This document shows positions 5,300-49,429 of a DNA stretch of 64,000 bases, in pieces. Position numbers and translations under genes: made by a program. The first letter of the stretch is position 1. Every line of letters begins with the position of its first letter. The stretch lies in NCBI GenBank assembly GCA_964546555.1, contig CAZJJX010000003.1, positions 13,139 through 77,138 of the forward strand. The letters are read 5' to 3'. The DNA is from an uncultured Candidatus Saccharibacteria bacterium. GTDB lineage: Bacteria; Patescibacteriota; Minisyncoccia; Phycocordibacterales; UBA5272. The notes beneath the pieces are model-generated. The model saw only the letters and a list, made by a program, of their open reading frames with translations, was not told where the DNA came from and searched no databases.

Positions 5300-6058
5300 C
5301 TATGTCTTTTGTAAGATAAAAAATGAATTGATAATTGAGTTATAAGGTCGTACTTCTAGAACAGGTTGCACTTCTTTAAGGAGTTCTTTTGCGATAGGGG
5401 TATAGAGGAGTTTGCGGGTTCCATGGGATGATCTGCAGAGAAGAATTTTCCCTGGCTGTAACATACTGTGGATGAGGCTAATGATCTTAGTCTTTGTTTT
5501 TTCATTTTGCCCAACCATTGCAGCAAGGTAGATGACGTTATATTTATTATAGTCAGTGTACATGTGTGTGTCGATATTAAGCACTTTGATTGCCTGAGAA
5601 AGTCCTAATTTTTTAATTAAAGAAACTGATGTTGCGTAACTGCTTGCATCCTTTTCTATTATTGTGCACCGTAGGTTATATTTTTTGCAAAGGAATATTG
5701 CAGTTAATGGGAGTGGACCTCCTCCTACGAATAACACACTGCGTATTTTTTTATAAAGACATGCTAAGTTCGTATACTCAAGGTCTACTAGTTGTTCGTA
5801 GTTTTTGTAGTACCAGAATTTTTCTAGCTCTTTATTTGGATTTTCGGATGCCAGTATTTTATTTGCCCAATAGACTTCCATTTCATATTCGGCAATCGAG
5901 GATAGTTCTCGTAGTTTTTTTATCTGGTGTTGCTTTAAGTTTATTTCTTTATTGTTGCTACAGTATGCAACTAAGTCTGAAAACGCATCATTCGTTTTCA
6001 TAGATGGCTTAAGTGTGTCTAGTTTTAAAATTCTATCAAATATCTTTACGTCTTCCAT
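5300..6058 (-). CDS. nicotianamine synthase (NAS/CntL)-like enzyme
   Basis: Several stretches match NAS-family hallmarks as I recall them. These are FWYYKNYEQLVDLE (FPYYxNYxxLxxLE), VLFVGGGPLPLTAIFL (VAFVGSGPLPLTS), VIYLAAMVGQNEKTK (VFLAALVGM..EEK), LLCRSSHGTRKLLYTPI (RSAHGARAFLYPVV) and INSFFILQK. Confidence 0.8.
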   Translation of the reverse strand: MEDVKIFDRILKLDTLKPSMKTNDAFSDLVAYCSNNKEINLKQHQIKKLRELSSIAEYEMEVYWANKILASENPNKELEKFWYYKNYEQLVDLEYTNLACLYKKIRSVLFVGGGPLPLTAIFLCKKYNLRCTIIEKDASSYATSVSLIKKLGLSQAIKVLNIDTHMYTDYNKYNVIYLAAMVGQNEKTKTKIISLIHSMLQPGKILLCRSSHGTRKLLYTPIAKELLKEVQPVLEVRPYNSIINSFFILQKT

Positions 6059-6067
6059 ATGTAGCTG

Positions 6068-6904
6068 CTAAATATCAGGTAGGCCTCTTTTCATCTCTTG
6101 AAAATCTTTGATTGTTGAAAGGTTGCCACGCTTGTTTAGTTTCTTAACTTTCTCAAGTATAGAAATCATGTTTTGTTTTGTGGTATCGTTTATATTCGTA
6201 TAGTCATAATTCATAATCTTTTGGTCAAACGGAACCTCGCCTAAAATTTTCTCAGTATTTTTTGATACAAAATCTTTGTAGAAATCATTGTCGGTTGGCT
6301 TATTAATGACTGCAAAACACGGGATAAAAGATTTGCGACAAATGTCCTGGATTTGTTCAAAGACTTTTATACTATTGCGGTGAGGTTCTACAACTCCAAT
6401 CACTGCATCGATACCTGCGTAGAGTCCGTAGTTAAGCATGTCGGCACCAGCAACACTGTCTATCACAACGAAGTTATCTTTCTCTTCGAGTAATCCAAGG
6501 TAATATTTTAGTGGCCCCGAAAGACCGTGAGCACACTTGCCAGAAAACATAACATCAGGTGAACCAAGACCGATATTAATAAGTGATAGATTTTTTGAAA
6601 CAGGAGTTGTGATTGATTGGGTATATGTATCGAGCGGGTCGAGTGTAAACGAAGGAAGTGATGATGCGTCTTTATCAAGTACGCCACTTACTTTTGTTAC
6701 TTGTGTGTGTTCCATGAACTCTCTTTCTGTTTTGTGCATAAGAGGGGTCTTTTCTGGATTAAGACCAAGGTTACTCGTTAAGTCCATGTTATGGTCAGCA
6801 TCCACAGCAAGCACAGTAGAACCCATGTCTTCAAGGGTTTTTATAGCAAGCCATGATACTGAGCTCTTCCCGCTCCCGCCTTTTCCAACAAATGCGATTT
6901 TCAT
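6068..6904 (-). CDS. CooC/MinD-superfamily P-loop NTPase (metallochaperone-like)
   Basis: Has the deviant Walker A motif MKIAFVGKGGSGKSS and a VLAVDADHNMDL segment. The CooC-like metal motif region reads GKCAHG (Cys-x-His) rather than Cys-x-Cys. Confidence 0.7.
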   Translation of the reverse strand: MKIAFVGKGGSGKSSVSWLAIKTLEDMGSTVLAVDADHNMDLTSNLGLNPEKTPLMHKTEREFMEHTQVTKVSGVLDKDASSLPSFTLDPLDTYTQSITTPVSKNLSLINIGLGSPDVMFSGKCAHGLSGPLKYYLGLLEEKDNFVVIDSVAGADMLNYGLYAGIDAVIGVVEPHRNSIKVFEQIQDICRKSFIPCFAVINKPTDNDFYKDFVSKNTEKILGEVPFDQKIMNYDYTNINDTTKQNMISILEKVKKLNKRGNLSTIKDFQEMKRGLPDI

Positions 6905-6943
6905 AATAGTAATGCAACGTAGTTGCGTATAACTCTATACTAC

Positions 6944-6966
6944 AATGTAATGATTATTATTGCAAT
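6944..6966. promoter_or_regulatory. candidate Fur/Zur-box in divergent promoter
   Basis: The AT-rich segment AATGTAATGATTATTATTGCAAT resembles Fur-box hexamer arrays. The 94-bp intergenic region also carries three (A)ATGCAAC motifs, one inside the inverted repeat GCAACGTAGTTGC. Confidence 0.3.
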
Positions 6967-6997
6967 AGAGTTGCGTTAGTGATATACTAATGCAACT

Positions 6998-7429
6998 ATG
7001 GTGCAACAAGATTTTGAAGCAGAAACAAAAATCCTCAAAGATTCTGGTTTTCGGGTAACGAAAGGAAGAGTTGTGTTACTTAGTATTTTACGAAGTACTC
7101 ATTCGCCATTTACTGCCAATGAGCTTCATAAAAAACTGCAAGGTAAAATAGACAAGGTAACATTGTATCGCGCTCTTGAAGATTTTGTTGAAGTAAATAT
7201 TGTCACTAAGGTTAATCTCATGGAAGGTGTGATGCATTATGAATTCTCGCACCACGACCATCACCATCATCACATTGTGTGCGAGAAGTGTGGGAAGATA
7301 GAGGATATAGAAAGTTGCGATCAGAAGAGACTTCAAAAAGAGACACTCACCCATTCTCAATATTTCAAGATTATTAATTCTCACTCACTGGAATTTTTTG
7401 GAATTTGTAATGCTTGTAGTAAAAAATAA
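6998..7429 (+). CDS. Fur-family metalloregulator (Fur/Zur/PerR type)
   Basis: Contains a winged-helix segment (RVTKGRVVLLSIL...FTANELHKKL...VTLYRALEDFVE), a His run (HHDHHHHH) and two CxxC pairs (CEKCGK, CNAC). Confidence 0.85.
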   Translation: MVQQDFEAETKILKDSGFRVTKGRVVLLSILRSTHSPFTANELHKKLQGKIDKVTLYRALEDFVEVNIVTKVNLMEGVMHYEFSHHDHHHHHIVCEKCGKIEDIESCDQKRLQKETLTHSQYFKIINSHSLEFFGICNACSKK

Positions 7430-7485: not shown

Positions 7486-8610
7486 ATGTTACGAAGAATA
7501 TTGATAGTAATAAGTATATTTTTTTCATGGAGTGCATGTGCTTTTGCGCAAACCTCTACTCTTATTACTGATGTTGAGGTATTTGAAAAGGCGATTGTGG
7601 AGAAAGTAAGTAGTACAACTGTTACAACGATACCAGGATTCGACACGCAGTCACCGTCACAAATGGTAACTGTTAAAATTATTGAAGGAAATAACAAAGG
7701 TAAGACGACAACATTTAAAAATGATTATGTGCAAGTTAATGAAGGAGATAAAGTGTATGTAAGACATCTCATACATCATGCAGATGGTGTAGAAACATGG
7801 TCTATGGCTGACCCGTATCGCTTAGATGTAATTTTCTGGTTAATGATTACTTTTGTGGTGCTGATTTTTATATTTGGTGGCGTGCAAGGTGTTCGGGGTC
7901 TTGCTAGTTTGGTCGGGAGTATCGGTCTATTATTTTATGTTCTTATTCCTGGAATATACGGTGGGTACAATGCAGTTATGGTGAGTATCGGAGTTGCTTC
8001 ACTCATTATCATTGTTGGTTCATATATTACACATGGCTTTAATCGCACGACATCATCTGCTGTTCTTGGAATGATAGCTACTGTTATTATTACAGGTCTC
8101 GGTGCGTACTATGTTGTTGATGTTGCAAAATTAAGTGGGTACAGTTCTGATGAAAGTATGTTTCTTAATTTAAATGCACGAGGTGCTATTGATATGGTCG
8201 GACTACTATTTGGTGGAATTATGATTGGTCTTCTTGGTGTGCTTTATGATAGTGCTATCGGGCAGGCAGTTGCGATAGAGGAGTTATATAGAGCAGGAAA
8301 ACATCTCACACGTGTAGAGGTATATAAGCGGGGCATAAGGATTGGTCGTGAGCATATTGGTGCACTTGTTAACACACTTGCGATTGCATATGTTGGTGCG
8401 TCGCTCCCATTATTTTTACTTGTTCAAAATGCAACGACTGGTGTGCTGTTTATTATTAACAGTGAGACATTTGCAACTGAGATAGTCCGTATCCTTATTG
8501 GAAGTATTGGCCTTATACTTGCTGTGCCGATTACTACACTTATTGCTTCTTATATGTTACACGGTAGAGTTACAGATTCGGGAGGTGGTGCGCATCATCA
8601 TGTGCACTAG
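7486..8610 (+). CDS. YibE/F-like integral membrane protein
   Basis: Has a signal peptide, an extracytoplasmic N-domain, and then about 6 TM helices with the YibE/F-like layout. The C-terminal tail is His-rich (GGGAHHHVH). Confidence 0.6.
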   Translation: MLRRILIVISIFFSWSACAFAQTSTLITDVEVFEKAIVEKVSSTTVTTIPGFDTQSPSQMVTVKIIEGNNKGKTTTFKNDYVQVNEGDKVYVRHLIHHADGVETWSMADPYRLDVIFWLMITFVVLIFIFGGVQGVRGLASLVGSIGLLFYVLIPGIYGGYNAVMVSIGVASLIIIVGSYITHGFNRTTSSAVLGMIATVIITGLGAYYVVDVAKLSGYSSDESMFLNLNARGAIDMVGLLFGGIMIGLLGVLYDSAIGQAVAIEELYRAGKHLTRVEVYKRGIRIGREHIGALVNTLAIAYVGASLPLFLLVQNATTGVLFIINSETFATEIVRILIGSIGLILAVPITTLIASYMLHGRVTDSGGGAHHHVH

Positions 8611-12466: not shown

Positions 12467-12553
12467 GGAGGATTGGATGAGTGGCTTAAATCAACGGTTT
12501 ACTAAACCGTCGAGCCTTTATTGGCTCCGTGAGTTCGAATCTCACATCCTCCG
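12467..12553 (+). tRNA. type II (long variable arm) tRNA, Ser-like, anticodon reads ACT
   Basis: Hand-folded cloverleaf. Acceptor stem is GGAGGAT/ATCCTCC and the D arm is GAT-GAGTGGCTTAA-ATC. The anticodon arm is ACGGT-TTACTAA-ACCGT and the variable arm is GAGCC-TTTATT-GGCTC. The T arm is GTGAG-TTCGAAT-CTCAC with discriminator G. No encoded CCA. Confidence 0.8.
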
Positions 12554-12568
12554 CTCGTACAAAAATGC

Positions 12569-12598
12569 GCCAACCTGGGAAACCAGGTGGCCATTTTT
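12569..12598 (+). terminator. rho-independent terminator after tRNA-Ser
   Basis: Stem GCCAACCTGG / CCAGGTGGC (one bulged A) with a GAAA loop, followed by CATTTTTG. Confidence 0.6.
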
Positions 12599-12600
12599 GT

Positions 12601-12925
12601 TGAGCGGAGGATAGTAAACCAAACTGCTTTGGTTTACGGTGAGATTCGAATAGGGGTCGCGAATCTGCTTCGAGGAACAATGTAAGGAAAAAGATCGAAG
12701 AACAAATGAGGAAGGGGTTTGGTGTTGACGTTTACACGGACGACTCCGACATGGCTCTCTATCTGTTCACTGTCCATTCGATGGATAGTCTCTACTGGAG
12801 AACCCGAGAGACGTTCACCACTCAGCAGAGTGGCCGCCATCTCGGCCAGCGATTCGTTCAATAAACTGGTTTGACCAGTACAACCCGCCCAACGGTGAAA
12901 AGCCCGTTTCGGCGGGCTTTGTTTT
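12601..12925 (+). ncRNA. putative structured RNA: tRNA-skeleton/T-arm-like repeat module fused to a GC-rich hairpin-dense region ending in an intrinsic terminator
   Basis: The 5-prime module has a CTGC-loop hairpin (12614-12637) and a 27-nt core (12648-12674) identical to 48578-48604. Consecutive short hairpins follow: CCAT-TCG-ATGG, GTCTCT..AGAGAC, CACTC-AGCA-GAGTG, GGCCG..CGGCC and CTGGT-TTG-ACCAG. It ends with the stem AAGCCCG/CGGGCTT plus TTGTTTTT at 12899-12925. No family assigned. Confidence 0.4.
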
Positions 12926-13064
12926 TATAGATTAGATTTAATTAACAAACCATTTGTTTTAATAATAGTGTCCCAACCTTGCCCCATATTCTCCGCTTAA
13001 AGTTTTTAACCAAGCAGGGGGTCAATGTTAAAGACCAGAATCTCTCTTTTCAAGAGCTGTGGAA

Positions 13065-13096
13065 TAAAAAATCACCTCTACGAAAGTAAAAGGTGA
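13065..13096 (-). terminator. rho-independent terminator
   Basis: Stem TCACCT/AGGTGA is followed on the minus strand by TTTTTTATT. It lies directly downstream of the 13112-13621 gene. Confidence 0.5.
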
Positions 13097-13111
13097 CTTG
13101 TTGAATATGTC

Positions 13112-13621
13112 TCAAACAATTTTTCCGAGATCGTTCGGATTAGATAGGTCATTGACGATAATTGCCTTGCCTTTGCTTTCACCAGACAAGAGTATTTCAA
13201 TCGGCGAAGGAATTCGCTCGACTCTGCCAGGTGGCATCCAGAATCCTTGTCTATCTATTCCACTGCCAGCGCAATTCCAACCTAAGCATCCAATAAGGAG
13301 ACGTTCATCCTTGTCATACCGTACTGCATGTTCGGGGACCTTGTAGGATTCTTTTGGAATGAAGAGCGTGACTGGATCTCCTACATGGATTGAGTTCTCG
13401 CACCACGCACACTTGATCGACATTTTGGCAATGCAATCGAGGCAGTAGTCTGGGTTACCGTTCTCGGAGAGAGGCATTGAAGTTATATGACTTTCTCCGT
13501 GAGATGTCAGCTCACCAGTCTTCTTTGTGAGATGTTTGCAGACCTTTGCGGTGTGTGTTTTGCGAAACGGATACGAAATTGCGAGCCAGAAGACTCGTAG
13601 ACGATACAGTATTTGGTACAT
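13112..13621 (-). CDS. hypothetical Cys-rich protein in GC-richer islet
   Basis: 169-aa ORF whose composition is visibly more GC-rich than the flanks. Contains CLDC...CAWC and GCLGWNCAGSG. No recognised domain. Confidence 0.55.
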   Translation of the reverse strand: MYQILYRLRVFWLAISYPFRKTHTAKVCKHLTKKTGELTSHGESHITSMPLSENGNPDYCLDCIAKMSIKCAWCENSIHVGDPVTLFIPKESYKVPEHAVRYDKDERLLIGCLGWNCAGSGIDRQGFWMPPGRVERIPSPIEILLSGESKGKAIIVNDLSNPNDLGKIV

Positions 13622-13858
13622 ATAGGGCTCCTTTTGGTTTGGGTTTCTCCGGAGGTAATACTACGTGATATTCAGCAATAAGTCTAGAGTTATCAAACTT
13701 TTTATTTCTACTTGCGTACCTAATTAAAACTTCTAAAAGTATTCTAATGTAGCATTTTGCGCCATATACCAAAGAGATGACTGGGTGGTTTTACTGTCAG
13801 ATCATCTCTTATATTAGGAATAACAAAATTTTCGATGCAGTTTGTTATACTCTTTATT

Positions 13859-18861: not shown

Positions 18862-19788
18862 ATGAAATTATTTATGCGCGTGTTTTCAATTGTGTTTGTT
18901 GTTGGGTTCTTATCGTACCTAGCTTTGTATATCAGTAATCACAATATGGGAATATTAAATCCTAAAGGTGTGATTGCTGTAGCAGAAAAAAATCTTATAG
19001 TAACATCAGTGCTGCTTATGATGATTGTCATCGTGCCTGTTTTTGTCATGTTGTTTACGTTTGCTTGGCGATACAGAGCAAGTAATACAAAAGCAAAATA
19101 TACCCCAGAGTGGCACAACAACACTGCACTTGAAATTACATGGTGGGCTATACCTATTTGTATTATTGTGATACTTGGTACCATTACTTGGAAATCAACA
19201 CATGAACTTGACCCTTTTAAACCTCTTGATTCTTCGGTTAAACCACTCACCATTGAAGTAGTCGCGCTTGATTGGAAATGGCTTTTTATTTATCCAGAGC
19301 TCAATATTGCAACGGTTAACCTCCTTGTTGTACCTAATAATACACCGCTTAATTTTAGAATTACCGCTGATGCACCGATGAATGCATTTTGGATACCACA
19401 GCTTGGTACGCAGATTTATGCAATGCCAGGCATGGATTCTAAGCTACACCTCATGGCTCATGAAGAAGGCATCTATAAAGGTGTCTCATCAAACTTTAGT
19501 GGTGATGGTTTTGCTGGCATGAAATTCGACACCCATGTACTTTCTTCAAATGATTTTACTGCATGGCAAGCAATAGTAAAAACCAACCCATCAATACTTA
19601 CGCTTGAGGATTATAAAAATCTCTCAAAGCAATCTAAGAATAATGCAGTCGTGTACTATTCTTTTGTTGAGCCAAGATTATTTGATTCTATTATTATGAA
19701 GTTCATGTCTCCAGGTGGAATACGGTCACTTGGTACATCGACAAAGATGATGGATCACAGGGAAATGATGGAAGGAATGAATCACTAA
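18862..19788 (+). CDS. cyoA: cytochrome bo3-type quinol oxidase subunit II
   Basis: Two TM helices plus a cupredoxin domain. [19 protein letters not shown]...[13 protein letters not shown] parallels E. coli CyoA. The CuA Cys/His ligands are absent, which points to a quinol oxidase rather than a cytochrome c oxidase. Confidence 0.85.
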
Positions 19789-19819
19789 TTATTATAACTA
19801 TAAACGCAACTCATATACT

Positions 19820-21766
19820 ATGTTAGGAAAACTCTCACTGGAAGTTCTACCACATGACCCAATCGTTCTTGGAGCGACGGCGCTTATGGCATGTATTGTG
19901 ATTTTGGTATCTACTATTCTTACGAAGACAAAAAAGTGGGGATGGCTCTGGAATGATTGGGTTACCTCAGTTGATCACAAAAAAATCGGCATTATGTATC
20001 TTATTCTTGCGTTTGTTATGCTCATACGTGGGTTTATTGATGCTGTAATGATGCGTACACAGCAAGCTGTAGCTGTTGGAGGTAATATGGGATTCCTTCC
20101 ACCAGATCACTTTGATCAGATATTTACTGTGCACGGAGTGATTATGATCTTCTTTGTGGCGATGCCATTTATGTTTGGATTGATTAACTTAGCAGTTCCT
20201 CTTCAGATTGGTGCGCGTGATGTTGCGTTCCCATATCTTAATTCGATGAGTCTTTGGCTTACGATTATGGGGGCTCTTCTTGTTAACGTATCACTTTTCC
20301 TTGGGGACTTTGCTGCTGCTGGATGGCTTGCATATCCACCGCTCTCTGGTCTTGAGTTTAGTCCTGGCGTTGGTATGGATTATTATATCTGGGCTATACA
20401 ACTTTCCGGTGTAGGAACACTTCTTTCTGGTGTAAACTTCATTGCAACTATCTTTACGATGCGATGTAAAGGGATGACACTTATGCGAATGCCTGTGTTT
20501 ACATGGACGAGCTTAGCGGCTATGATTCTTGTTGTTATTATCTTCCCAATTTTAACAGTGACGCTTGCCCTTCTTGGTGCAGATAGAATATTTGGAATGC
20601 ATTTCTTCACGTCATCGTTTGGTGGTAATCCGATGATGTACGTTAATCTTATATGGGCATGGGGACATCCTGAAGTGTATGTTCTTATTTTGCCAGCATT
20701 TGGAATCTTTTCTGAAATAGTGGCGACGTTTTCTAAGAAGCGTTTGTTTGGTTATACGAGCATGATTTATGCAACGATTGCAATTACAGTGCTCTCGTTT
20801 TTGGTGTGGCTCCACCATTTCTTTACTATGGGGGCAGGGGCTAATGTTAATGCATTCTTCGGTATTATGACTATGATTATTGCGATACCAACGGGGGTAA
20901 AAATTTTCAACTGGCTCTTTACGATGTACAGAGGACGTATTACGTTTACTTCCCCAATGCTTTGGATGATGGGTTTTATTTTTACGTTTACCATAGGGGG
21001 GATGACAGGTGTGATGCTTGCTGTTCCGGGTATTGATTTTCAAGTCCATAATAGTCTTTTCCTTATCGCTCACTTCCACAACACAATTATCGGAGGGGTG
21101 GTGTTTGGTTATTTTGCTGGGCTTGTGTATTGGTTTCCAAAGTTTTTTGGATTTACTCTTAATGAGAAGTTCGGAAAACTTGCGTTTTGGCATTGGATTG
21201 TTGGTTTCTTTGTAACGTTCACCCCGCTCTATATTCTTGGTTTTATGGGTATGACTCGACGCTTACAGCATGTAAGTGATAAAGAGTGGCAACCACTTCT
21301 CATTGCTTCGCTTATTGGTGTTGGTATCATTGCGGTTGGTGTTGTTATGCAAGCAGTGCAGCTCATTGTGAGTATTAAAAATAAAAAGTTATACAAAGAT
21401 ACAACAGGGGATCCGTGGGACGGCAGAACACTCGAGTGGTCAACATCGTCACCTCCGCCAGTCTATAACTTTGCAGTGATTCCTGAAGTGTATGGTAGGC
21501 ATGCATTTTGGGATATGAAGTATAGTGATACCCATCCTGCAAAGAAGGCTACGTATCATGATATTGTTATGCCGAAGAATACACCGCTTGGTTTTTATAC
21601 AGCGATTATGGGCTTTGTAGTCTGCTTCTCTTTGGTGTGGCACATGTATGTAATTGCTTTACTTGCGATGGTTGCAATAATTGGACTTGTTATTTATCGA
21701 TCATACGAAAAAGAAACAGAGTATGTAATTAAGGCAGATGAATTACGTACACTTGAGCGTGTATAG
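19820..21766 (+). CDS. cyoB: quinol oxidase subunit I (heme-copper oxidase)
   Basis: 648 aa with heme-copper oxidase signatures [26 protein letters not shown] and HFHNTIIGG. Confidence 0.95.
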
Positions 21767-21786
21767 CAATAATTATTACGACTACT

Positions 21787-22401
21787 ATGAAAAAAAACGA
21801 ACACACACATCAGTTAGCTCATCACGAGGAAGTAACACACGATGAACAAGGAAGATCACTTTTTGGATTCTGGGTTTATATCATGAGTGACTGTCTTTTG
21901 TTTGCAAGTATTTTCGCAACGTATGCAGTGCTTAGGAACAGTACCTTTGATGGCCCAACAGGAAAAGAATTATTCAGCATGCCTTTTGTGCTTACTGAGA
22001 CATTCCTTCTTTTGGCAAGTACTTTTACATACGGTCTTGTCACTATTTTTGCTTACCACAAAAAGAGTAAGACACAGTTACTTACATGGATGTCGGTAAC
22101 ATTCCTCCTTGGTGCCGCATTTATTAGTATGGAAATCTATGAGTTTGTGTCACTTATACGAGATGGTCACGGGCCACAGGTAAGCGCATTTCTTTCGGCG
22201 TTCTTTGTGCTTGTAGGTACTCATGGCCTCCATGTATTTGCTGGACTTATATGGATGGCAAGTGTGTTTTTTCAGGTGCTTACTCGACCTCTTACTCCTA
22301 AGCTTGTCGGCAACATCTCAATGCTTGGAATCTTTTGGCATTTCCTTGATATTATATGGATCTTTATTTTTACAATTGTGTATTTAGTGGGATTGCTTTA
22401 A
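21787..22401 (+). CDS. cyoC: quinol oxidase subunit III
   Basis: 204 aa with 5 TM helices. FFVLVGTHGLHVFAGLIW and FWHFLDIIWIFIF are typical of subunit III. Confidence 0.85.
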   Translation: MKKNEHTHQLAHHEEVTHDEQGRSLFGFWVYIMSDCLLFASIFATYAVLRNSTFDGPTGKELFSMPFVLTETFLLLASTFTYGLVTIFAYHKKSKTQLLTWMSVTFLLGAAFISMEIYEFVSLIRDGHGPQVSAFLSAFFVLVGTHGLHVFAGLIWMASVFFQVLTRPLTPKLVGNISMLGIFWHFLDIIWIFIFTIVYLVGLL

Positions 22402-22416
22402 TTTTTATACAACACT

Positions 22417-22794
22417 ATGCAAAAATCATTTGAAGTTATTGATGAAAAGTTTGAATCATCTCGTAATGCTGTCTTGTCATACGTGACAGGTTTTTTACTG
22501 TCTATTTTTTTGACAGTGATCCCTTATACGATGGTGACAGAGGGTATGCTTACACGAACAGGCCTCCTTGTTGCAGTGAGCCTGTTTGCCGTTGCTCAGT
22601 TTATTGTACAGATACTATTTTTCCTTCACTTACCTGCAAAACATAAGCCGTACTGGAATATCATAGTTTTTATATATACGATACTTATTGTTCTATTTTT
22701 TGTGATAGGTTCTATGTGGATTATGTATCATCTTAATATGAATCTTATGGGTACATCTCCATTTCATTCTAACGAAGGTTTTATTCCACAATAA
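22417..22794 (+). CDS. cyoD: quinol oxidase subunit IV
   Basis: 125 aa with 3 TM helices. Its operon position and the YVTGFLLSIFLTVIPY pattern fit subunit IV. Confidence 0.7.
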   Translation: MQKSFEVIDEKFESSRNAVLSYVTGFLLSIFLTVIPYTMVTEGMLTRTGLLVAVSLFAVAQFIVQILFFLHLPAKHKPYWNIIVFIYTILIVLFFVIGSMWIMYHLNMNLMGTSPFHSNEGFIPQ

Positions 22795-22812
22795 AACTTA
22801 CTTTAACTTTAA

Positions 22813-23676
22813 ATGCTAAGAGATTATTACACTCTTACGAAACCGGGTATCATGTATGGGAACGCACTTACTGTGGTTACGGGGTTTGTGCTTGCTTCTT
22901 ATGGCGGGGTCGATTGGCGACTTTTAGCGGTTACAACTATCGGTCTTTCTCTTGTTGTTGCGTCAGGATGTGTGTTTAATAATATTATCGATAGAGATAT
23001 TGACGCCCTCATGGAGCGAACAAAATCAAGACCCCTTGTAAGGGGTGTTATCAAAAAAGATCATGCATTTCTTTTTGGTACCATGCTCCTTATTCTTGGA
23101 ATAGTGGTACTTATGGTTGCAACTAATTGGCTTGCTGTTGTTGCTGCTTTAGTTGGATTTTTTGTGTATGTAGTTGTATATAGTTTATGGCTTAAAAGAA
23201 ACTCGGTACACAGTACCCTTATTGGAGGTATATCAGGAGCGATACCTCCGCTTGTAGGCTATGTTGCAGTAAATGGCACAATTGACATTGTTGCTGTACT
23301 ACTTTTTGTGGTTATGGTTGTGTGGCAAGTGCCTCATTCCTTTGCAATTGCATTATACCGTCTCTCAGATTATGAAAAAGCAAATATTGCGGTCTTTCCT
23401 GTTAAGTGTGGAATATATGCAACAAAAGTACGCATGAGTATCTATGTGCTTTTATTTATGGTGAGTACCTATTATCTTGCAAAATATAGTTATCTTGGAA
23501 CGTATTATATTTATACAATGGTTGCGCTTAGTGTAATGTGGTTTGTGACAAGTGTACACTTCTTGCATCAAAAAAGTCTAGAGAGAAAAATAGCGAGAAA
23601 GTTTTTCTTCTATTCAATTCTCATTCTTTTTGTGTGGTGTTGTATGATAATTTTTGATAGATTACTTCATACATAG
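22813..23676 (+). CDS. cyoE: protoheme IX farnesyltransferase (heme O synthase)
   Basis: UbiA-family polytopic protein with NNIIDRDIDALMERTKSRPL (NxxxDxxxD). It lies directly downstream of cyoABCD. Confidence 0.85.
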   Translation: MLRDYYTLTKPGIMYGNALTVVTGFVLASYGGVDWRLLAVTTIGLSLVVASGCVFNNIIDRDIDALMERTKSRPLVRGVIKKDHAFLFGTMLLILGIVVLMVATNWLAVVAALVGFFVYVVVYSLWLKRNSVHSTLIGGISGAIPPLVGYVAVNGTIDIVAVLLFVVMVVWQVPHSFAIALYRLSDYEKANIAVFPVKCGIYATKVRMSIYVLLFMVSTYYLAKYSYLGTYYIYTMVALSVMWFVTSVHFLHQKSLERKIARKFFFYSILILFVWCCMIIFDRLLHT

Positions 23677-45606: not shown

Positions 45607-45618
45607 TTTCTATTCTTG

Positions 45619-45689
45619 TTGCGGAGACCAGAATCGAACTGGTGTCCCGAGGTTATGAGCCTCGTGAGTTACCTCTACTCTACTCCGCT
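45619..45689 (-). tRNA. tRNA-fMet-like initiator (anticodon CAT)
   Basis: Hand-folded on the minus strand as AGCGGAG-TA-GAGT-AGAGGTA-ACTC-A-CGAGG-CTCATAA-CCTCG-GGAC-ACCAG-TTCGATT-CTGGT-CTCCGCA-A. It has a 1:72 mismatch (A.A) and an A11:U24 pair, both initiator-like features. Only 2 of the 3 canonical G-C pairs are present in the anticodon stem. Confidence 0.7.
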
Positions 45690-45862: not shown

Positions 45863-45936
45863 GTCAGTGTAGCTCAGTTGGTTAGAGCGAAGGACTCATA
45901 AGCCTTAGGTCGGTGGTTCGATCCCACCCACTGACA
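45863..45936 (+). tRNA. elongator-type tRNA with CAT anticodon (Met or Ile2)
   Basis: Fold: GTCAGTG-TA-GCTC-AGTTGGTTA-GAGC-G-AAGGA-CTCATAA-GCCTT-AGGTC-GGTGG-TTCGATC-CCACC-CACTGAC-A. The 1:72 position is paired. Confidence 0.8.
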
Positions 45937-45981
45937 CAATAGTAAATATACCCAGCTTCTTGCTGGGTATATTTACTATTG
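45937..45981 (+). terminator. perfect 20-bp-stem hairpin abutting the tRNA 3-prime end (H1)
   Basis: CAATAGTAAATATACCCAGC-TTCTT-GCTGGGTATATTTACTATTG. The loop and stem top resemble hairpin H3 at 49160-49198. Confidence 0.6.
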
Positions 45982-45994
45982 TAAAAGTATTGGA

Positions 45995-46095
45995 GCAAGC
46001 AAACTACTTTGCTTGCGAGTGGGATCGAATACGGGGTAGCGAAACTACTTCGAACGTAGTGAGGAGTTTTGTGACCGATCCAACCCACTAACACA
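45995..46095 (+). repeat. structured repeat element, copy B
   Basis: Has a CTAC-loop hairpin (45995-46016) followed by GAGTGGGATCGAATACGGGGTAGCGAAACTACTTCGAACGTAGTGAGGAGTTTTGTGACCGATCC. The 3-prime end CCCACTAACACAA mimics the tRNA 3-prime end plus flank CCCACTGACACAA. Confidence 0.6.
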
Positions 46096-46100
46096 AAAAT

Positions 46101-46128
46101 AAAAACAATGTTGTTTTACATTGTTTTT
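46101..46128. terminator. bidirectional terminator
   Basis: AAAAACAATGT-TGTTTT-ACATTGTTTTT. It lies downstream of the minus-strand gene 46140-47333 and of repeat copy B. Confidence 0.6.
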
Positions 46129-46139
46129 ACTACGCACAA

Positions 46140-47333
46140 CTACACCTCCCATTTTTTTGTCATCTCATCTTTTTCTTTCTTTGCTTTTTCTATAAAACCT
46201 TTATAGATGAATGCATTTTTAAGAAGCTGTCTTCCATTTCTATGTGGTGCAAAAAGTGGACAAAGGTTAGAGCGTACTTTTGATATTGTTACAGGGACTT
46301 TGATAGTGCTATCAGTTTTCTTTGGGTGAGGGAAGAAGAATATACACGATACTCCATCTATAGAATACTCGGATCTATTTTTGTTCATGCCAAGTTCTTC
46401 TAGCATGTGAGTAAGTGGTGACATGCCTCTCCCTTCACTTTGGCTTGGAAGTGTGAGTTTTATTTTTTTAAGAGCTTTATCACTACCGTATGAAAGTGTG
46501 ATTCCTTTTATTTTCCATCCCGCAAAAGGAATACCTTGTGTGTGGGTATTAAATTCAAATGTTTCTTTATTGAATGGTGATAAATCAAAATGTTCCTCCT
46601 TACCCTCAAAAGCTGAGTCGGTTACAACTCGTAGGAATGTATCAAGATAGATAAGCTTATCATATTTTGCGCCAGTGTATGATACGAGCACTTCTTGTGT
46701 TTCTCCTATATAAATAAGACGTAGTATTGCAGATTCTTTTTCCTGACGTCCTTTGTCGTGCTCGCTTGCATAGACCTTTAGGAGTACGTATATTGTTGTA
46801 CCTAATATGCCAGTTGTAATGTCTGTTACTTTTGTCTCATCTTCTTTGGTCGCAATTCGAGTAAGCTCTTTTGTGAGTGTTGTGAGAGCAAGCTCTGCTT
46901 TTACCATGTCTACTTCTTTTGATTCATAAATCATGTACGATGGTCGCTCGTAGAATGTGTAGTAAAAGAGCATCGACTCAAAAAGTTCTTTTTTGTGTGT
47001 GAAATAATAGAGTACTGTGTCGTGATCAGTGTGACATTCAAGGAGGGGTTCCTGCACCGCTCCTTCTTCTTTTGTTTCAAGAAGTTTAAGGAGATTTGCG
47101 CCATGTTCGTTTGAAACTCTTGCGATTGTCATTACATCTTTTAAGATTTCTATTTTATTTGTTTCTGGGAGATTGGTATAAAAATCAACAAGGATATTGG
47201 TTGCATTTTTGCGAGGAGTATCCTCTGTTATTTCAAAAAATGCATCTATGGAATATAGACTGTAGAACTTTGTTACGATTTCGTGGTTGTTAATTTTTTT
47301 GAAGTATTGTTTAGGTAAAAATGCTTTTGCCAT
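46140..47333 (-). CDS. orphan hypothetical protein (397 aa)
   Basis: A long uninterrupted ORF with its own terminator. I recognise no motif (no P-loop, Zn finger, or recombinase/nuclease signature). It is flanked by tRNAs and repeat elements. Confidence 0.6.
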   Translation of the reverse strand: MAKAFLPKQYFKKINNHEIVTKFYSLYSIDAFFEITEDTPRKNATNILVDFYTNLPETNKIEILKDVMTIARVSNEHGANLLKLLETKEEGAVQEPLLECHTDHDTVLYYFTHKKELFESMLFYYTFYERPSYMIYESKEVDMVKAELALTTLTKELTRIATKEDETKVTDITTGILGTTIYVLLKVYASEHDKGRQEKESAILRLIYIGETQEVLVSYTGAKYDKLIYLDTFLRVVTDSAFEGKEEHFDLSPFNKETFEFNTHTQGIPFAGWKIKGITLSYGSDKALKKIKLTLPSQSEGRGMSPLTHMLEELGMNKNRSEYSIDGVSCIFFFPHPKKTDSTIKVPVTISKVRSNLCPLFAPHRNGRQLLKNAFIYKGFIEKAKKEKDEMTKKWEV

Positions 47334-47607
47334 CGAGGTGGTTATTAGTGACTAGTAATTAGTTGTTAGTGAATACACACAATAGCAGTTAGTGTAGCAT
47401 GTAGAATTAAATTCCCTTAAAGTAAAAAAAGAGAAGTTAGTTAAGTAAGTGTATTGTCACGATACATATTCATAATAGTAGCGATAAATACCCTTGTTTG
47501 GCCTTAAGCACACTTGACTCTTTAAAAATTTACAAAATAATGTATAATAGGACGACAAAGCTATTTTTACAACGAAAAAAAGTAGTCTTTGATAATTTAA
47601 TCAAGTT

Positions 47608-47679
47608 GCGGCTGTAGCTCAACGGTAGAGCACTCGCCTGTCACGCGAGAGGTCGTGGGGTCAGCACCCATCAGCCGCG
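47608..47679 (+). tRNA. tRNA-Asp (GTC) with atypical T-loop
   Basis: Fold: GCGGCTG-TA-GCTC-AACGGTA-GAGC-A-CTCGC-CTGTCAC-GCGAG-AGGTC-GTGGG-GTCAGCA-CCCAT-CAGCCGC-G. The T-loop GTCAGCA deviates from the TTCRANY consensus. Confidence 0.7.
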
Positions 47680-47759
47680 CAAACTGAAAAAGTCTTCGAA
47701 AAGAAGATTTTTTCTTTTGATGGATTAAAGGATATTGAGCTGAATGATATAATCATGGT

Positions 47760-48338
47760 ATGAATACATTTTTATCTTGGGAAGATATCCGTGGGCAAGA
47801 AGAATCCTTTGGGTTTCGTTTACAAAATGCCCTTAATCAGCTTGGAATAGTAGATATGTGTAAAGAACTTTCAATATGTCATGCATGTGTACGTATCAAG
47901 AATCCTGATAATGTCACAGCATTAAAAGAAAGTGTTTCTCAAGTTGGTGTAATAATTTCTTCTGCAGTAGTAAATGGAAGAGAAATACTTATTATTCAAT
48001 TGGATAACCCGCTTAGCGTTAGCGGGTGGTATGTGTCTGGGATCGAGTTGCCGTATCCTAAAAAGAATCATTCGTACGAGGATGGATTAGAGCATGTTGA
48101 GTTCGTATTGCCGGATACAGAAAATACAATGGATGCTGTGCGGGAAAAAGTTACTACAATAATAAAAAATATCTCCCTCGAAGAATTAAAGCAAAACTAT
48201 TCTTACTCAGAAGATGAGCCACAGGCGGAAGGTGACCAGAAACCTAACCCGACAATTTCAATCAAGGTAGATGGAGTCGGTATTAAGTTCCATGCATTAT
48301 CAATACAAGATGTTGTGGGTTTTAGTGAGTCAAACTAG
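47760..48338 (+). CDS. YecM-like VOC-superfamily protein
   Basis: Three stretches parallel E. coli YecM as I recall it. ICHACVRIK matches ADHISLRC. IELPYPKKNHSYEDGLEHVEFVLP matches VELPWPGEKRYPHEGWEHIEIVLP. PNPTISIKVDGVGIKFH matches PNPTLAVTDGKTTIKFH. Confidence 0.65.
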   Translation: MNTFLSWEDIRGQEESFGFRLQNALNQLGIVDMCKELSICHACVRIKNPDNVTALKESVSQVGVIISSAVVNGREILIIQLDNPLSVSGWYVSGIELPYPKKNHSYEDGLEHVEFVLPDTENTMDAVREKVTTIIKNISLEELKQNYSYSEDEPQAEGDQKPNPTISIKVDGVGIKFHALSIQDVVGFSESN

Positions 48339-48360
48339 TTCTCACTTCATTCACCAGAGT

Positions 48361-48409
48361 ACGCAAATATAAAATGCCCGACTTAAGTCGAGGCATTTTA
48401 TATTTGCGT
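48361..48409 (+). terminator. long AT-rich hairpin (H2) downstream of YecM-like gene
   Basis: ACGCAAATATAAAATGCC-CGACTTAAGTCG-AGGCATTTTATATTTGCGT. It is preceded by the 12-mer CTCACTTCATTC (48341-48352). Confidence 0.55.
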
Positions 48410-48418
48410 AGCGAAAGC

Positions 48419-48544
48419 AAATGACCTGCGTCATTTGAGTTGGGATTTGAAGGCCGCAGCGTTATGAGCCTAGCAAGGCGAATCGCGAGGGGCGGGCTGC
48501 GAGAAATTTTTGTGACGACAAAAATTTACTTGTAGCGAAATCCC
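48419..48544 (+). repeat. structured repeat element, copy C1
   Basis: Has a CTGC-loop hairpin (48419-48436), then GAGTTGGGATTTGAAGG, and an internal 10-bp hairpin AAATTTTTGT-GACG-ACAAAAATTT. It closes with AAATCCC pairing to GGGATTT. Confidence 0.6.
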
Positions 48545-48552
48545 ATTTGTAT

Positions 48553-48634
48553 TCACCTGCGTGAGACTTCGGGATTTGAATAGGGGTCGCGAATCTGCTT
48601 CGAGCAACGCGAGGCAGATTTGTGACCAAATCCC
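48553..48634 (+). repeat. structured repeat element, copy C2
   Basis: Has the mini hairpin TCAC-CTGC-GTGA, then GGGATTTGAATAGGGGTCGCGAATCTGCTTCG-AGCAACG-CGAGGCAGATTTGTGACCAAATCCC. The 27-nt core is identical to 12648-12674. Confidence 0.65.
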
Positions 48635-48656
48635 TTTTGCTTGCTATACTTAAACA

Positions 48657-49094
48657 ATGAAATTACTTGATACTCAACAATTTAATTTTGGTGTGTATGG
48701 TATTTGTATGAAAGATGACCAAGTCTTAGTAATTAAGAAAGGCCGTGGTCCATATAAAGGACTATATGATCTACCTGGTGGACGAATTGAATTCGGCGAG
48801 CATGTAGAAATTGCTCTTAAACGAGAATACGAAGAAGAGATTGGCGTAGCTGTAACAGGGATGACATTTATTGGCTATAACGAATATTTTTGTCAGTTTA
48901 CGAATGATCTGGGTGAATTAAAAGACTTTCACCATGTCGGATTATATTTTACTGTTGAGTGTGATACTTCGGTTATTAAAACTGATGCTGATGGACATGA
49001 CTCACTCGGAGCCTTATTCATTTCAAAAAAAGAACTTGGACTTCATAACTGCTCTCAGATTGCATTTGAGATGATCCAAAAAGTAAATAATTAA
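48657..49094 (+). CDS. NUDIX hydrolase
   Basis: Nudix box GGRIEFGEHVEIALKREYEEEIGV, matching GX5EX7REUXEEXGU. Confidence 0.85.
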   Translation: MKLLDTQQFNFGVYGICMKDDQVLVIKKGRGPYKGLYDLPGGRIEFGEHVEIALKREYEEEIGVAVTGMTFIGYNEYFCQFTNDLGELKDFHHVGLYFTVECDTSVIKTDADGHDSLGALFISKKELGLHNCSQIAFEMIQKVNN

Positions 49095-49159
49095 AACTCT
49101 AAGTGAAGCGGTGATTCCAGTCCTCACTTCATTCTCACTTCATCCGCTAGTGTGCTCAT

Positions 49160-49198
49160 AAACAAAAATACCTAACTTCTTGTCAGGTATTTTTGTTT
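49160..49198 (+). terminator. AT-rich hairpin (H3) downstream of NUDIX gene
   Basis: AAACAAAAATACCTAAC-TTCTT-GTCAGGTATTTTTGTTT with one mismatch. It is preceded by CTCACTTCATTC (49123-49134). Confidence 0.6.
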
Positions 49199-49241
49199 CC
49201 TTGTAAAGCACCAAACTTCTAATAGAGTAAGAGAGAGGGGT

Positions 49242-49286
49242 CTGCGAGAAATTTTTGTGACGACAAGAATTTACTTGTAGCCAAAT
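49242..49286 (+). repeat. partial structured repeat, copy D (direct repeat of 48497-48541)
   Basis: CTGCGAGAAATTTTTGTGACGACAAGAATTTACTTGTAGCCAAAT differs from the C1 segment at only 2 of 45 positions. Confidence 0.8.
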
Positions 49287-49357
49287 ATCATCTCTGAATT
49301 GTCGTGATAGGTTTGTGATTAGTTCCTATTTGGCATTTATTTGTTGCTTTACTTTCG

Positions 49358-49380
49358 ATATATATATATATATATATATA
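49358..49380. repeat. (AT)n microsatellite
   Basis: About 11 AT dinucleotide units sit upstream of the 49430 ORF. Confidence 0.9.
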
Positions 49381-49429
49381 CTTTTCATAAGCTATACATG
49401 TTATAAATTAATGTAGCTAATCTTAATTT

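Follow-up and report, generated by a model that had tools for sequence, protein, structure and literature searches.

Introduction

What are the structured repeats that stand behind several tRNA genes of this locus, and why does each of them resemble the tRNA next to it? The question is raised by a stretch of 64,000 nucleotides (hereafter the window) of contig CAZJJX010000003.1, assembly GCA_964546555.1, from an uncultured Candidatus Saccharibacteria bacterium, in which a sequence-only reading had noticed T-arm-like hairpin elements beside tRNA genes, dividing the region into cassette-like units, and had proposed for them three identities: mini integrative elements or recombination scars, small tRNA-like RNAs, or attC-like cassette boundaries. 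The genomes of the candidate phyla radiation (CPR) are tiny and are thought to be poor in repeats and mobile DNA, but in the loci sampled here about one tRNA gene in two (57 of 113) bears a conserved structured module that is fitted to that particular tRNA. The window repeats belong to a large unannotated CPR family of hairpin modules of ~115 nt behind tRNA genes, forming units of about 170 bp that are placed directly 3' of the tRNA throughout the CPR. Rather than being ordinary terminators, these modules most probably mark a small element of a mobile or recombination kind; more specifically, we favour, tentatively and at a little less than an even chance, the reading of each unit as the end, with a hairpin attachment site, of a small non-autonomous element accreting at the 3' ends of tRNA genes.

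Repeats of the window and extent of the family

The window repeats are real and go beyond chance. The 27-mer GAATAGGGGTCGCGAATCTGCTTCGAG is found exactly at 12648-12674 and 48578-48604, with no match in 100 shuffled sequences, and its diverged copy occupies 46027-46052. The hairpins with CTGC or CTAC tetraloops lie precisely where the sequence-only reading had placed them (12614-12637, 45995-46016, 48419-48436 and 48553-48564); the closing helices that it had listed, GGGATTTG/CAAATCCC, GGGATTT/AAATCCC and GGATCG/CGATCC, are present, as is the resemblance of the tail of copy B (CCCACTAACACAA) to the tRNA-Met end (CCCACTGACACAA); and its 12-mer CTCACTTCATTC recurs at 48341 and 49123, with a further copy, carrying one mismatch, at 49134. 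The count of this 12-mer alone is within chance (4 of 100 shuffles), and the 12-mer is part of a 27-nt boundary motif common to the window and a related genome (locus L009; related loci are cited by such numbers). When folded, the window elements are much more stable than shuffled sequence (z = -4.1 to -5.3). A further claim, that the tetraloop changes together with the downstream core, holds inside the window, where CTGC accompanies AATCTGC cores and CTAC an AAACTAC core, but fails across the family: in 66 members the loop is CTGC regardless of the core allele (27 with AAACTA, 20 with AATCTG), and this coupling is no covariation.

A 23-base degenerate pattern derived from the core, GAATAN{0,1}GGGGTNGCGAANCTNCTTCG, matches 60 loci in 32 assemblies of a species-representative genome set, often with several copies per assembly, and all 60 belong to metagenome-assembled genomes of CPR/Patescibacteria under labels such as Nomurabacteria, Paceibacterota, Parcubacteria and Taylorbacteria. 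Fifty-nine aligned copies served to build a covariance model, which is usable for annotating such modules; in 522 kb of sequence it detects 96 copies (E <= 1e-7), all of them on one strand, the opposite strand scoring only about 20-25 bits. The family is listed in no RNA or repeat database; in a scan of the window and six related loci with Rfam 15, no family overlaps the modules even at E <= 10 and tRNAs alone reach the threshold, in agreement with the earlier statement that the repeats match no known Rfam family. The viral contigs of IMG/VR gave no match to the core pattern, strict or relaxed, and a literature search turned up no account of these elements. No variants of the window at strain level were found, and its YecM and 397-aa proteins are not on record.

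The tRNA genes were called with ARAGORN, with Rfam 15 as a second check. Only four tRNAs were called in the window, and no tmRNA (transfer-messenger RNA) in the window or the 60 loci, and the modules themselves have neither a D arm nor the 7-nt anticodon loop of a true tRNA or tmRNA. Two identities were rejected on such grounds. The core GAUUCGAAUAGGGGUCGCGAA may resemble tmRNA 5' ends and Ro-binding helices; an identity as tmRNA or Y RNA is set aside by the lack of any ARAGORN or Rfam match and by a different strand topology, and the 330 nt downstream of copy A are unrelated foreign DNA with no tmRNA body. A hidden tRNA with an intron in the T-loop is likewise set aside, there being no D or anticodon arm; group I introns at position 35/36 have been described in Patescibacteria tRNAs (PMC13011429).

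The association with tRNA genes is tight. Fifty-seven of 97 copies start no more than 55 nt past the 3' end of a tRNA on the same strand, covering at least 25 anticodon classes, against a chance adjacency of ~0.7% per copy as estimated from counts and lengths. The simplest explanation, ordinary Rho-independent terminators or generic palindromes of the repetitive extragenic palindromic (REP) kind lying near tRNAs by chance, would account for the AT-rich hairpins with T-runs in the region and for the extragenic, multi-copy character of the units. Nevertheless, the module has no T-run, carries sense and antisense segments specific to its tRNA and keeps its core across assemblies, and this explanation, refuted by the adjacency and by the tRNA-matched segments, retains a practically negligible probability.

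Architecture of the unit and its fit to the tRNA

Read in the sense of the tRNA, the parts follow each other as X within the tRNA, h1, an inverted X, a bulge with a clamp helix, and a direct X, where X stands for the last ~19-21 nt of the tRNA, from C56 of the T-loop to the discriminator plus one base. The hairpin h1 is long and AT-rich, lies between tRNA and unit in 45 of 56 tRNA-adjacent copies, 38 of these with a T-run, and reaches stems of 31 bp. The inverted X is in most cases interrupted, where T-stem and acceptor meet, by a hairpin of 9 bp with a CUGC tetraloop (this loop in about 52 of 66 copies), which leaves two segments: a*, the reverse complement of the acceptor 3' strand with the discriminator and one base, and P_T5', the reverse complement of the T-loop 3' half and the T-stem 3' strand of the tRNA (for tRNA-Leu, AAGGACTTG for CAAGTCCTT). 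The first of these is recognizable in about half of the copies (27 of 56 with at least 5/7 matches, 15 of them perfect); the second shows itself as a complement and not as a copy of the T-arm 5' half. A constant AAUA(C)GG bulge is followed by the clamp helix GGUCGCGAA...UUUGUGACC, in which three G.U pairs are fixed and the tip varies (consensus GGUCGCGAAWCURCUUCG/CGAGGYAGWUUUGUGACC), and by the terminal X.

The fit concerns the cognate tRNA. The terminal X is identical to it over 19/19 nt in 11 of 43 copies, and the tail matches it at 13.5 of 19 positions on average versus 8.7 for non-cognate tRNAs, with many tails ending after 7-13 nt; the mean perfect complementarity of P_T5' is 7.5 nt to the cognate tRNA, 2.5 nt to non-cognate ones and 5.7 nt to its own tail. 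The imitation of a T-arm half by the 5' helix strand, as first described, is therefore real in substance, but this strand is more exactly the reverse complement of the T-loop 3' half and T-stem 3' strand of the adjoining tRNA, and both the mimicry and the covariation of the closing helix arise because each module is written against the tRNA beside it. When the locus is single-stranded, pairing of the inverted copy with the downstream X is possible and gives a rod whose stem repeats the tRNA gene 3' end as a duplex. Some copies depart from this plan: in L054 the inverted copy is contiguous, without the CUGC hairpin, and in L055 the outer arms of the terminator are duplicated together with X.

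A hairpin scaffold followed by a ~19-nt 3' segment also recalls a guide RNA of the TnpB/Cas12 type, with X as the guide and with a tRNA 3' end beside GGTT as the target, for instance the attP of tRNA-integrating elements or an empty homing site, the antisense copy masking the guide. The scaffold-then-guide layout and the length of 19-20 nt fit this idea; the GGTT of the T-loop always precedes X in the tRNA and could serve as a mark comparable to a protospacer-adjacent or transposon-adjacent motif; and the segment in the guide position is automatically identical to the flank at each locus, as is the guide of an IS200/IS605 omega-RNA. However, no TnpB/Cas12-like or other large conserved open reading frame (ORF) lies near the units, the tails are often too short for such a guide at 7-13 nt, a perfect duplex would hide the guide, and a terminator stands upstream; a guide RNA is thus very improbable.

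Covariation and DNA-level signatures

The structure of the module is under selection. Over the 96 copies, 96.9% of the cells are paired versus 80.7% in shuffled alignments and ~40% with the partners slid, compensatory changes on both sides occur in 22 of 31 pairs, and none of 500 shuffles reaches any of the observed measures; a 59-copy MAFFT alignment gives the same picture of covariation. In the stem of the CUGC hairpin all nine pairs covary, a single pair taking up to five standard types; two positions of the clamp helix are compensatory with two alleles, and in diverged members the whole distal clamp helix is replaced with its pairing kept. In total, a core of ~60 nt is conserved and covarying in 32 assemblies.

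Such strand-specific covariation, together with the fixed G.U pairs, is what a functional tRNA-like non-coding RNA would show, a "pseudo-tRNA" made as a 3' trailer by read-through from the tRNA. In this form a* and X would make an acceptor-like stem upon the T-like helix P_T, the CUGC hairpin would stand in for the D/anticodon domain, and a conserved protein would be bound by the clamp helix; the product could act as a processing signal for RNase P or RNase Z, divert a tRNA-binding enzyme or toxin as a decoy, or be a switch that competes for pairing with the 3' half of the tRNA itself. The units always lie downstream of the tRNA and in its orientation, they copy the topology of the acceptor/T minihelix with a side hairpin at the junction equivalent to 7/49, the CUGC loop and the core are widely kept, and a terminator of their own often follows. 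On the other hand, a terminator-like hairpin parts most copies from the tRNA and no promoter of their own is present; the acceptor-like stem is missing in about half of them, as the a* matches and the short tails indicate; a* is not a strand selected for pairing but a Watson-Crick complement copied from a template; P_T5' suits the real tRNA better than its own tail; and the units are dispensable at orthologous tRNAs and match no Rfam family. Of the earlier proposal of small tRNA-like RNAs, the copied acceptor/T-arm fold stands, and the upstream terminator-like hairpins and the tails too short for an acceptor-like stem speak against the rest; we regard a functional RNA of this kind as plausible, though less probable than the attachment-site reading. 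The variable helices have no excess of G.U over A.C (10 vs 8; 7 vs 4, unbiased count), and a proof of RNA from an asymmetry between the two is set aside on that count. No excess of promoters was seen in the window region.

Several features are written at the level of DNA. At wobble sites of the acceptor stem, a* is the Watson-Crick complement of the tRNA 3' strand in nine of 10 cases, and not the base of the 5' strand, which rules out a* as a duplicate of the 5' acceptor strand. A palindrome centred on h1 takes in the 3' end of the tRNA with the genomic flank and passes unbroken into a*, and therefore mirrors genomic sequence and not a CCA-ended tRNA; a retro-origin from complementary DNA of a mature tRNA is excluded, since the inverted copy is continued by genomic 3' flank and h1 stem and not by CCA. 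In at least 10 copies, at different tRNAs, an insertion of 2 nt follows A58 at the joint of core and X.

These signatures would also be left by a passive by-product of replication, in which fold-back template switching at the terminator hairpin and the T-arm gives a small direct-inverted-direct triplication of the tRNA 3' end, quasi-palindrome correction keeps the arms matched and gene conversion spreads the hairpins between loci, with no dedicated enzyme and no function. The zig-zag of X, inverted X and X with hairpins exactly at both turns, the unbroken palindrome with its long stems, the templated nature of a*, the contiguous inverted copy of L054 and the co-duplicated terminator arms of L055 are all in keeping with it. 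Nevertheless, independent local fold-backs cannot yield the same clamp helix, bulge and CUGC hairpin at more than 20 tRNAs in 32 assemblies, gene conversion needs a homology that the flanks do not have, and the purifying conservation and covariation of the core argue for a recognized structure; this origin therefore appears improbable.

Gain, loss and arrays at orthologous tRNAs

The comparison of single units between related loci, which had been proposed as a check, shows that units are gained and lost at orthologous tRNAs, the same tRNA species being found both with and without a unit. L009 is syntenic with the window from 44 to 49.3 kb: its tRNA-Met(i) has two units and that of the window none, its tRNA-Met(e) unit has a core variant unlike that of module B, and its C1-C2 pair stands directly behind tRNA-Asp, the YecM cassette lying between them in the window. 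Among metagenome loci with an identical tRNA-Met(e) 3' end, five of five are empty, and one of these, L063, is syntenic with the window and has the same convergent downstream gene. Orthologous positions hold differing core variants, and h1 and core variants are common to different tRNAs in different genomes. Tandem arrays occur in L015, L021, L022, L051 and in the C1-C2 pair of the window; half copies are found in L021, and truncated copies such as module A also occur.

The tRNA-Asp of the window is atypical in both its T-loop (GTCAGCA) and its acceptor (GCGGCTG). Because a* of unit C1, GCGTAGCGAA, fits the canonical tRNA-Asp end of relatives, TTCGCTGCGC, and not the tRNA of the window, the comparison suggests that the original tRNA-Asp may have been replaced together with the YecM cassette.

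A separate observation concerns L062, where three partial tRNA-Met copies (anticodon arm to 3' end) lie in tandem ~100 nt apart at ~8150-8400; in this array tRNA ends have accreted in another way, with no hairpin module involved.

Cargo cassettes and recombinases

The cassettes of the window and of L009 share a 5' hairpin, a TGATATAAT promoter and a 3' boundary of 27 nt, GTTCTCACTTCATYCACYAGAGTRCGC, which is a degenerate tRNA-Ser-type 3' end with three mismatches. Between the same flanks the cargo differs: YecM and NUDIX genes in the window, a methyltransferase-like gene in L009 (flanks at 6985-7100 and 7783-7810 of the reverse complement). In L030, L044, L053, L056 and L058, 1.4-5.7 kb of genes stand between tRNA and unit, the longest distance, 5.7 kb from tRNA to module, being that of the L056 island; the cargo of such islands includes a DNA-methyltransferase-like gene pair, which may be read as restriction-modification, and other small ORFs. 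A large serine recombinase ends at the tRNA 3' end in two of the larger islands, at Ser(ACT) in L056 (~5507-7069) and at Leu(TAA) in L026 (2008-3612). Unknown ORFs near copies have no PHROG or Pfam match.

Two further sequences were noted beside the cargo. In L053, L056, L058, L011 and L031 a conserved, degenerate tRNA-like element of ~95 nt lies between the island cargo and the h1-module unit, with the T-arm GTGGG-YACTTAA-CCCAC and the end ...CCGCA, and is called neither by ARAGORN nor by Rfam. In L009, a heptamer tandem repeat of the CAGTGCTT type occupies 6775-6842 of the reverse complement, beside a masked stretch between C1-C2 and the next cassette.

A hairpin attachment site as the favoured reading

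Integration into a tRNA or tmRNA gene classically leaves direct repeats of its 3' segment as a footprint, and the attP of the CTX phage and the attC sites of integrons are used as folded single strands. By analogy with these, the layout of X, inverted X and X could be the expected trace of integration through a folded, single-stranded attachment (att) site. Of the three identities proposed at the outset, the integrative one is best supported because of the direct copies of the tRNA segment on both sides, the gain and loss, the arrays, the truncation and the cargo; its wording as scars does not hold, the ~60-nt core being conserved rather than decaying, and the small units have no integrase with them. 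As in known tRNA-gene elements, an intact tRNA at one flank is matched by a direct repeat of its 3' segment at the other, and the element is present or absent at the same tRNA; an integrase inside the element is lacking in the ~170-bp units and the window, the serine recombinases being found only in the larger islands L056 and L026.

Under the favoured attachment-site reading, the element would integrate and accrete at the segment of tRNA genes from the T-loop to the 3' end, a recombinase supplied in trans acting on the folded tRNA-sense strand in the manner of CTX phage attP and integron attC. Strand exchange in the T-loop, which the observed junctions (...GTGAC|C56) match, would let the X and the terminator h1 borne by the element complete the tRNA and move the former X beyond the unit; further rounds would build up arrays in tandem, in which the distal copies of X decay, and the extra X copies would become sites of gene-cassette exchange. 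The antisense copy would be kept matched by polymerase-templated copying over the hairpin, that is, by quasi-palindrome correction, and not by selection for RNA pairing.

Several points weigh against this reading. No recombinase or transposase recurs near the small units among 558 clustered ORFs, the neighbours being housekeeping genes (by sequence, the recurrent ones are RluA-, IF2-, RbfA-, L19- and RelA-like); a crude regular-expression scan of the 60 loci and the window gave no tyrosine-recombinase motif; the 30 ORFs of the window are ordinary chromosomal ones or have no Pfam match, with no recombinase among them, as the sequence-only reading had already noted for an integrase; and no free, circular or viral form of the unit was found. 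No hairpin of 50 nt interrupts the classical att sites of tyrosine and serine integrases. The sequence conservation of the core in 32 assemblies, with its three fixed G.U pairs and CUGC loop, fits a tRNA-like RNA equally well, as does the position of the side hairpin, exactly where the D/anticodon domain leaves a real tRNA. The weakest points are the missing enzyme and the retargeting, one conserved element being matched to more than 20 different tRNAs, and for the latter the templated quasi-palindrome correction is reached by inference only. Rather unlikely, in our judgement, are two less conventional possibilities: a self-retargeting, protein-less hairpin element that would write an inverted and a direct copy of the target tRNA 3' end at every insertion, by a new mechanism of transposition or recombination templated on the minihelix of the tRNA gene, or a library of guide or decoy RNAs, tRNA by tRNA, that polices integration sites.

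Should the modules be recombination sites, they would explain the shuffling of cassettes (YecM, NUDIX, methyltransferases, restriction-modification) at tRNAs without a resident integrase, and would make the copying of a target by a hairpin att site open to test; should they be RNAs, they would represent a new class of tRNA mimics. Either way, such modules break assemblies and confuse the annotation of tRNAs and islands in thousands of metagenome-assembled genomes.

Features of the window

The elements of the window are collected in Table 1. Module A is cut off in its apical loop, its 3' half and X tail being absent from the window, and an intact orthologue is present in L019. P_T5' of module B is closer to the X of the tRNA itself than to its own tail. 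A second core type, with two inner hairpins, is represented in the window by C1 and D and recurs at tRNA-Cys and elsewhere; the stretch of h1 and core D is homologous to L009 7786-7870 (reverse-complemented locus).

Table 1. Positions of tRNA genes, hairpin units and cassettes in the window
Feature	Position	Strand	Remarks
tRNA-Ser (anticodon ACT)	12467-12554	+	ARAGORN; Rfam tRNA 53.4 bits; last ~19 nt (X) are the template of module A
h1, terminator-like, tRNA-Ser to module A	12559-12601	+	Stem extends into tRNA 3' end and a*
Module A, truncated	12602-12684	+	Covariance-model score 33.3 bits
Module A, a*	12602-12612	+	GAGCGGAGGAT; reverse complement of tRNA-Ser 3' end
Module A, CUGC hairpin	12614-12637	+	
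Module A, P_T5'	12638-12648	+	GGTGAGATTCG; then bulge AATAGG
Module A, core 5' strand	12655-12672	+	Then loop remnant AGGAACAATGT
tRNA-Met	45618-45689	-	ARAGORN
tRNA-Met(CAT), elongator-type	45863-45937	+	ARAGORN, Rfam; X = 45919-45937 (CGATCCCACCCACTGACAC)
h1 of unit B, loop TTCTT	45936-45982	+	h1 family also behind Ile, Leu and Arg tRNAs elsewhere
Module B	45983-46095	+	Covariance model 94.6 bits, E = 4.8e-22; fold z = -4.06; a* region degenerate
Module B, CUAC hairpin	45995-46016	+	
Module B, P_T5'	46019-46027	+	GTGGGATCG; then bulge AATACGG
Module B, core hairpin	46035-46076	+	
Module B, X tail	46076-46094	+	CGATCCAACCCACTAACAC; 2 mismatches vs tRNA
tRNA-Asp(GTC), atypical T-loop	47608-47680	+	ARAGORN; heads cassette array; compared with canonical tRNA-Asp of relatives
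Cassette 1	47681-48364	+	YecM gene 47760-48338, Pfam YecM E = 3.7e-39
Cassette 1, terminator hairpin	47686-47714	+	Terminator scan
Cassette 1, promoter	47745-47753	+	TGATATAAT
Cassette 1, 27-nt boundary motif	48338-48364	+	GTTCTCACTTCATTCACCAGAGTACGC; includes 12-mer CTCACTTCATTC
Unit C1, type-2 core	48363-48545	+	Fold z = -5.28; covariance model covers 5' part only, 23.1 bits
Unit C1, h1	48363-48407	+	
Unit C1, a*	48406-48415	+	GCGTAGCGAA; matches canonical tRNA-Asp 3' end
Unit C1, CUGC hairpin	48417-48437	+	
Unit C1, P_T5'	48442-48449	+	GGGATTTG; then two inner hairpins
Unit C1, tail	48537-48545	+	GAAATCCCA
Module C2	48537-48646	+	Covariance model 92.5 bits; fold z = -4.79; bulge AATAGG
Module C2, CUGC hairpin	48553-48564	+	
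Module C2, P_T5'	48571-48578	+	GGGATTTG
Module C2, core hairpin	48585-48627	+	
Module C2, X tail, truncated, tRNA-Asp type	48627-48634	+	CAAATCCC
Cassette 2	48657-49157	+	NUDIX gene 48657-49094, Pfam NUDIX E = 1.8e-14
Cassette 2, duplicated boundary motif	49120-49157	+	3 mismatches vs tRNA-Ser 3' end
h1-type hairpin (loop TTCTT) and partial type-2 core D	49160-49282	+	Hairpin 49160-49202, core D 49237-49282; z = -2.5

Some further observations belong to single features of the table. Module A is broken by ~1 kb of DNA of higher GC content (window 12685-13650; 0.45-0.49 vs ~0.37 elsewhere), which contains a strong terminator at ~12895-12925, a possible gene fragment and, on the minus strand, a Cys-rich ORF of 169 aa (13112-13621) without a Pfam or PHROG match. 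The type-II tRNA-Ser with the anticodon ACT (A34) is unusual for bacteria; it is also present in L027, L053, L056 and L058, accompanies tRNA-Ser(GCT) in several genomes and is a frequent site of islands and units. The 3' strand of module C2, TTGTGACC, lies 17 nt upstream of TGCTATACT, forming a promoter-like site before the NUDIX gene (48622-48650), and TGCTATACT is also found behind the tRNA-Cys modules of L021 and L059, with differing spacings. Just past the last partial module, a perfect (AT)n run occupies the intergenic positions 49362-49382.

Elsewhere in the window, genes for a COX2/COX_ARM protein, a 648-aa ORF and a UbiA-family prenyltransferase stand in a row at 18862-23676 and resemble a terminal-oxidase cluster, which is uncommon in CPR genomes, and a type IV pilus cluster (PilM, T2SSE, T2SSF and a pilin-like protein) extends over 28.5-40 kb.

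Comparison with known systems

Among multi-copy palindromic families, the units are similar to REP sequences, to REPINs and to the PATEs derived from IS200/IS605 and mobilized in trans by HUH enzymes, all of them short, protein-less, extragenic hairpins in many copies, strand-specific, with conserved imperfect pairs and located at gene 3' ends; these families, unlike the units, have no target-derived sense and antisense segments, no 19-nt duplication and no tight specificity for tRNAs, and no RAYT, TnpA or other HUH gene recurs in the neighbourhoods of the copies. The ends typical of miniature inverted-repeat transposable elements are likewise absent, the left AAAATAAT... and right ...TTTTGTGAC termini not being inverted repeats and the flanking repeat having ~19 nt and not 2-10 bp, and the units also differ from IS200/IS605 elements or omega-RNAs in their 19-nt duplication and in having no tnpA or tnpB ORF near copies.

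With the tRNA-like domain of tmRNA, Y RNA and mascRNA the units share stacked acceptor-like and T-like helices and a replaced D/anticodon domain; they differ in forming P_T from a 5' and a 3' strand, without a T hairpin, and in being multi-copy and tRNA-specific. Tandem inversion duplications and quasi-palindrome mutations offer the same direct-inverted-direct triplication, with hairpins at both junctions and templated complementary arms; in the units, by contrast, the junction hairpins are a conserved shared family, only ~20 nt are triplicated, and dozens of loci are concerned.

The attC sites of integrons and the attP(+) of CTX, used by XerCD, are similar in that structure prevails over sequence, one folded strand recreating a duplex site, and in the asymmetric bulges, the strand specificity, the delimitation of small cassettes and the lack of a recombinase on the units themselves. 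The attC-type imperfect inverted repeat that folds as a single-strand hairpin is found here, as the paired cells and compensatory changes reported above indicate. The attC core sites RYYYAAC and GTTRRRY, however, are present in one of 96 copies each and together in none; nor do the loci show the integron arrangement of an adjacent intI with attI, Pc and promoterless cassettes, the crude scan for tyrosine-recombinase motifs being negative and the cassettes carrying TGATATAAT. In addition, the stem copies the neighbouring tRNA gene and not a fixed site, the cassettes have their own promoter and neither IntI nor a dedicated Xer was identified. Of the proposed attC-like cassette boundaries there remains, therefore, the analogy of hairpins delimiting swappable cassettes.

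The closest kind is the tRNA-gene integrative element with a direct repeat of the 3' end. Tandem islands at ssrA, with a serine recombinase, are described for Dehalococcoides (PMC3146451). The units and the islands at tRNA or tmRNA genes have in common an intact tRNA at one end and a direct repeat of ~19-20 nt of its 3' end at the other, tandem accretion with decaying distal repeats, cargo genes and, in L056 and L026, a serine recombinase beside the tRNA. What sets the present family apart is that its basic unit of ~170 bp is gene-less, that it adds an inverted copy of the tRNA end and a conserved, covarying junction hairpin, and that one conserved element serves more than 20 tRNAs instead of one.

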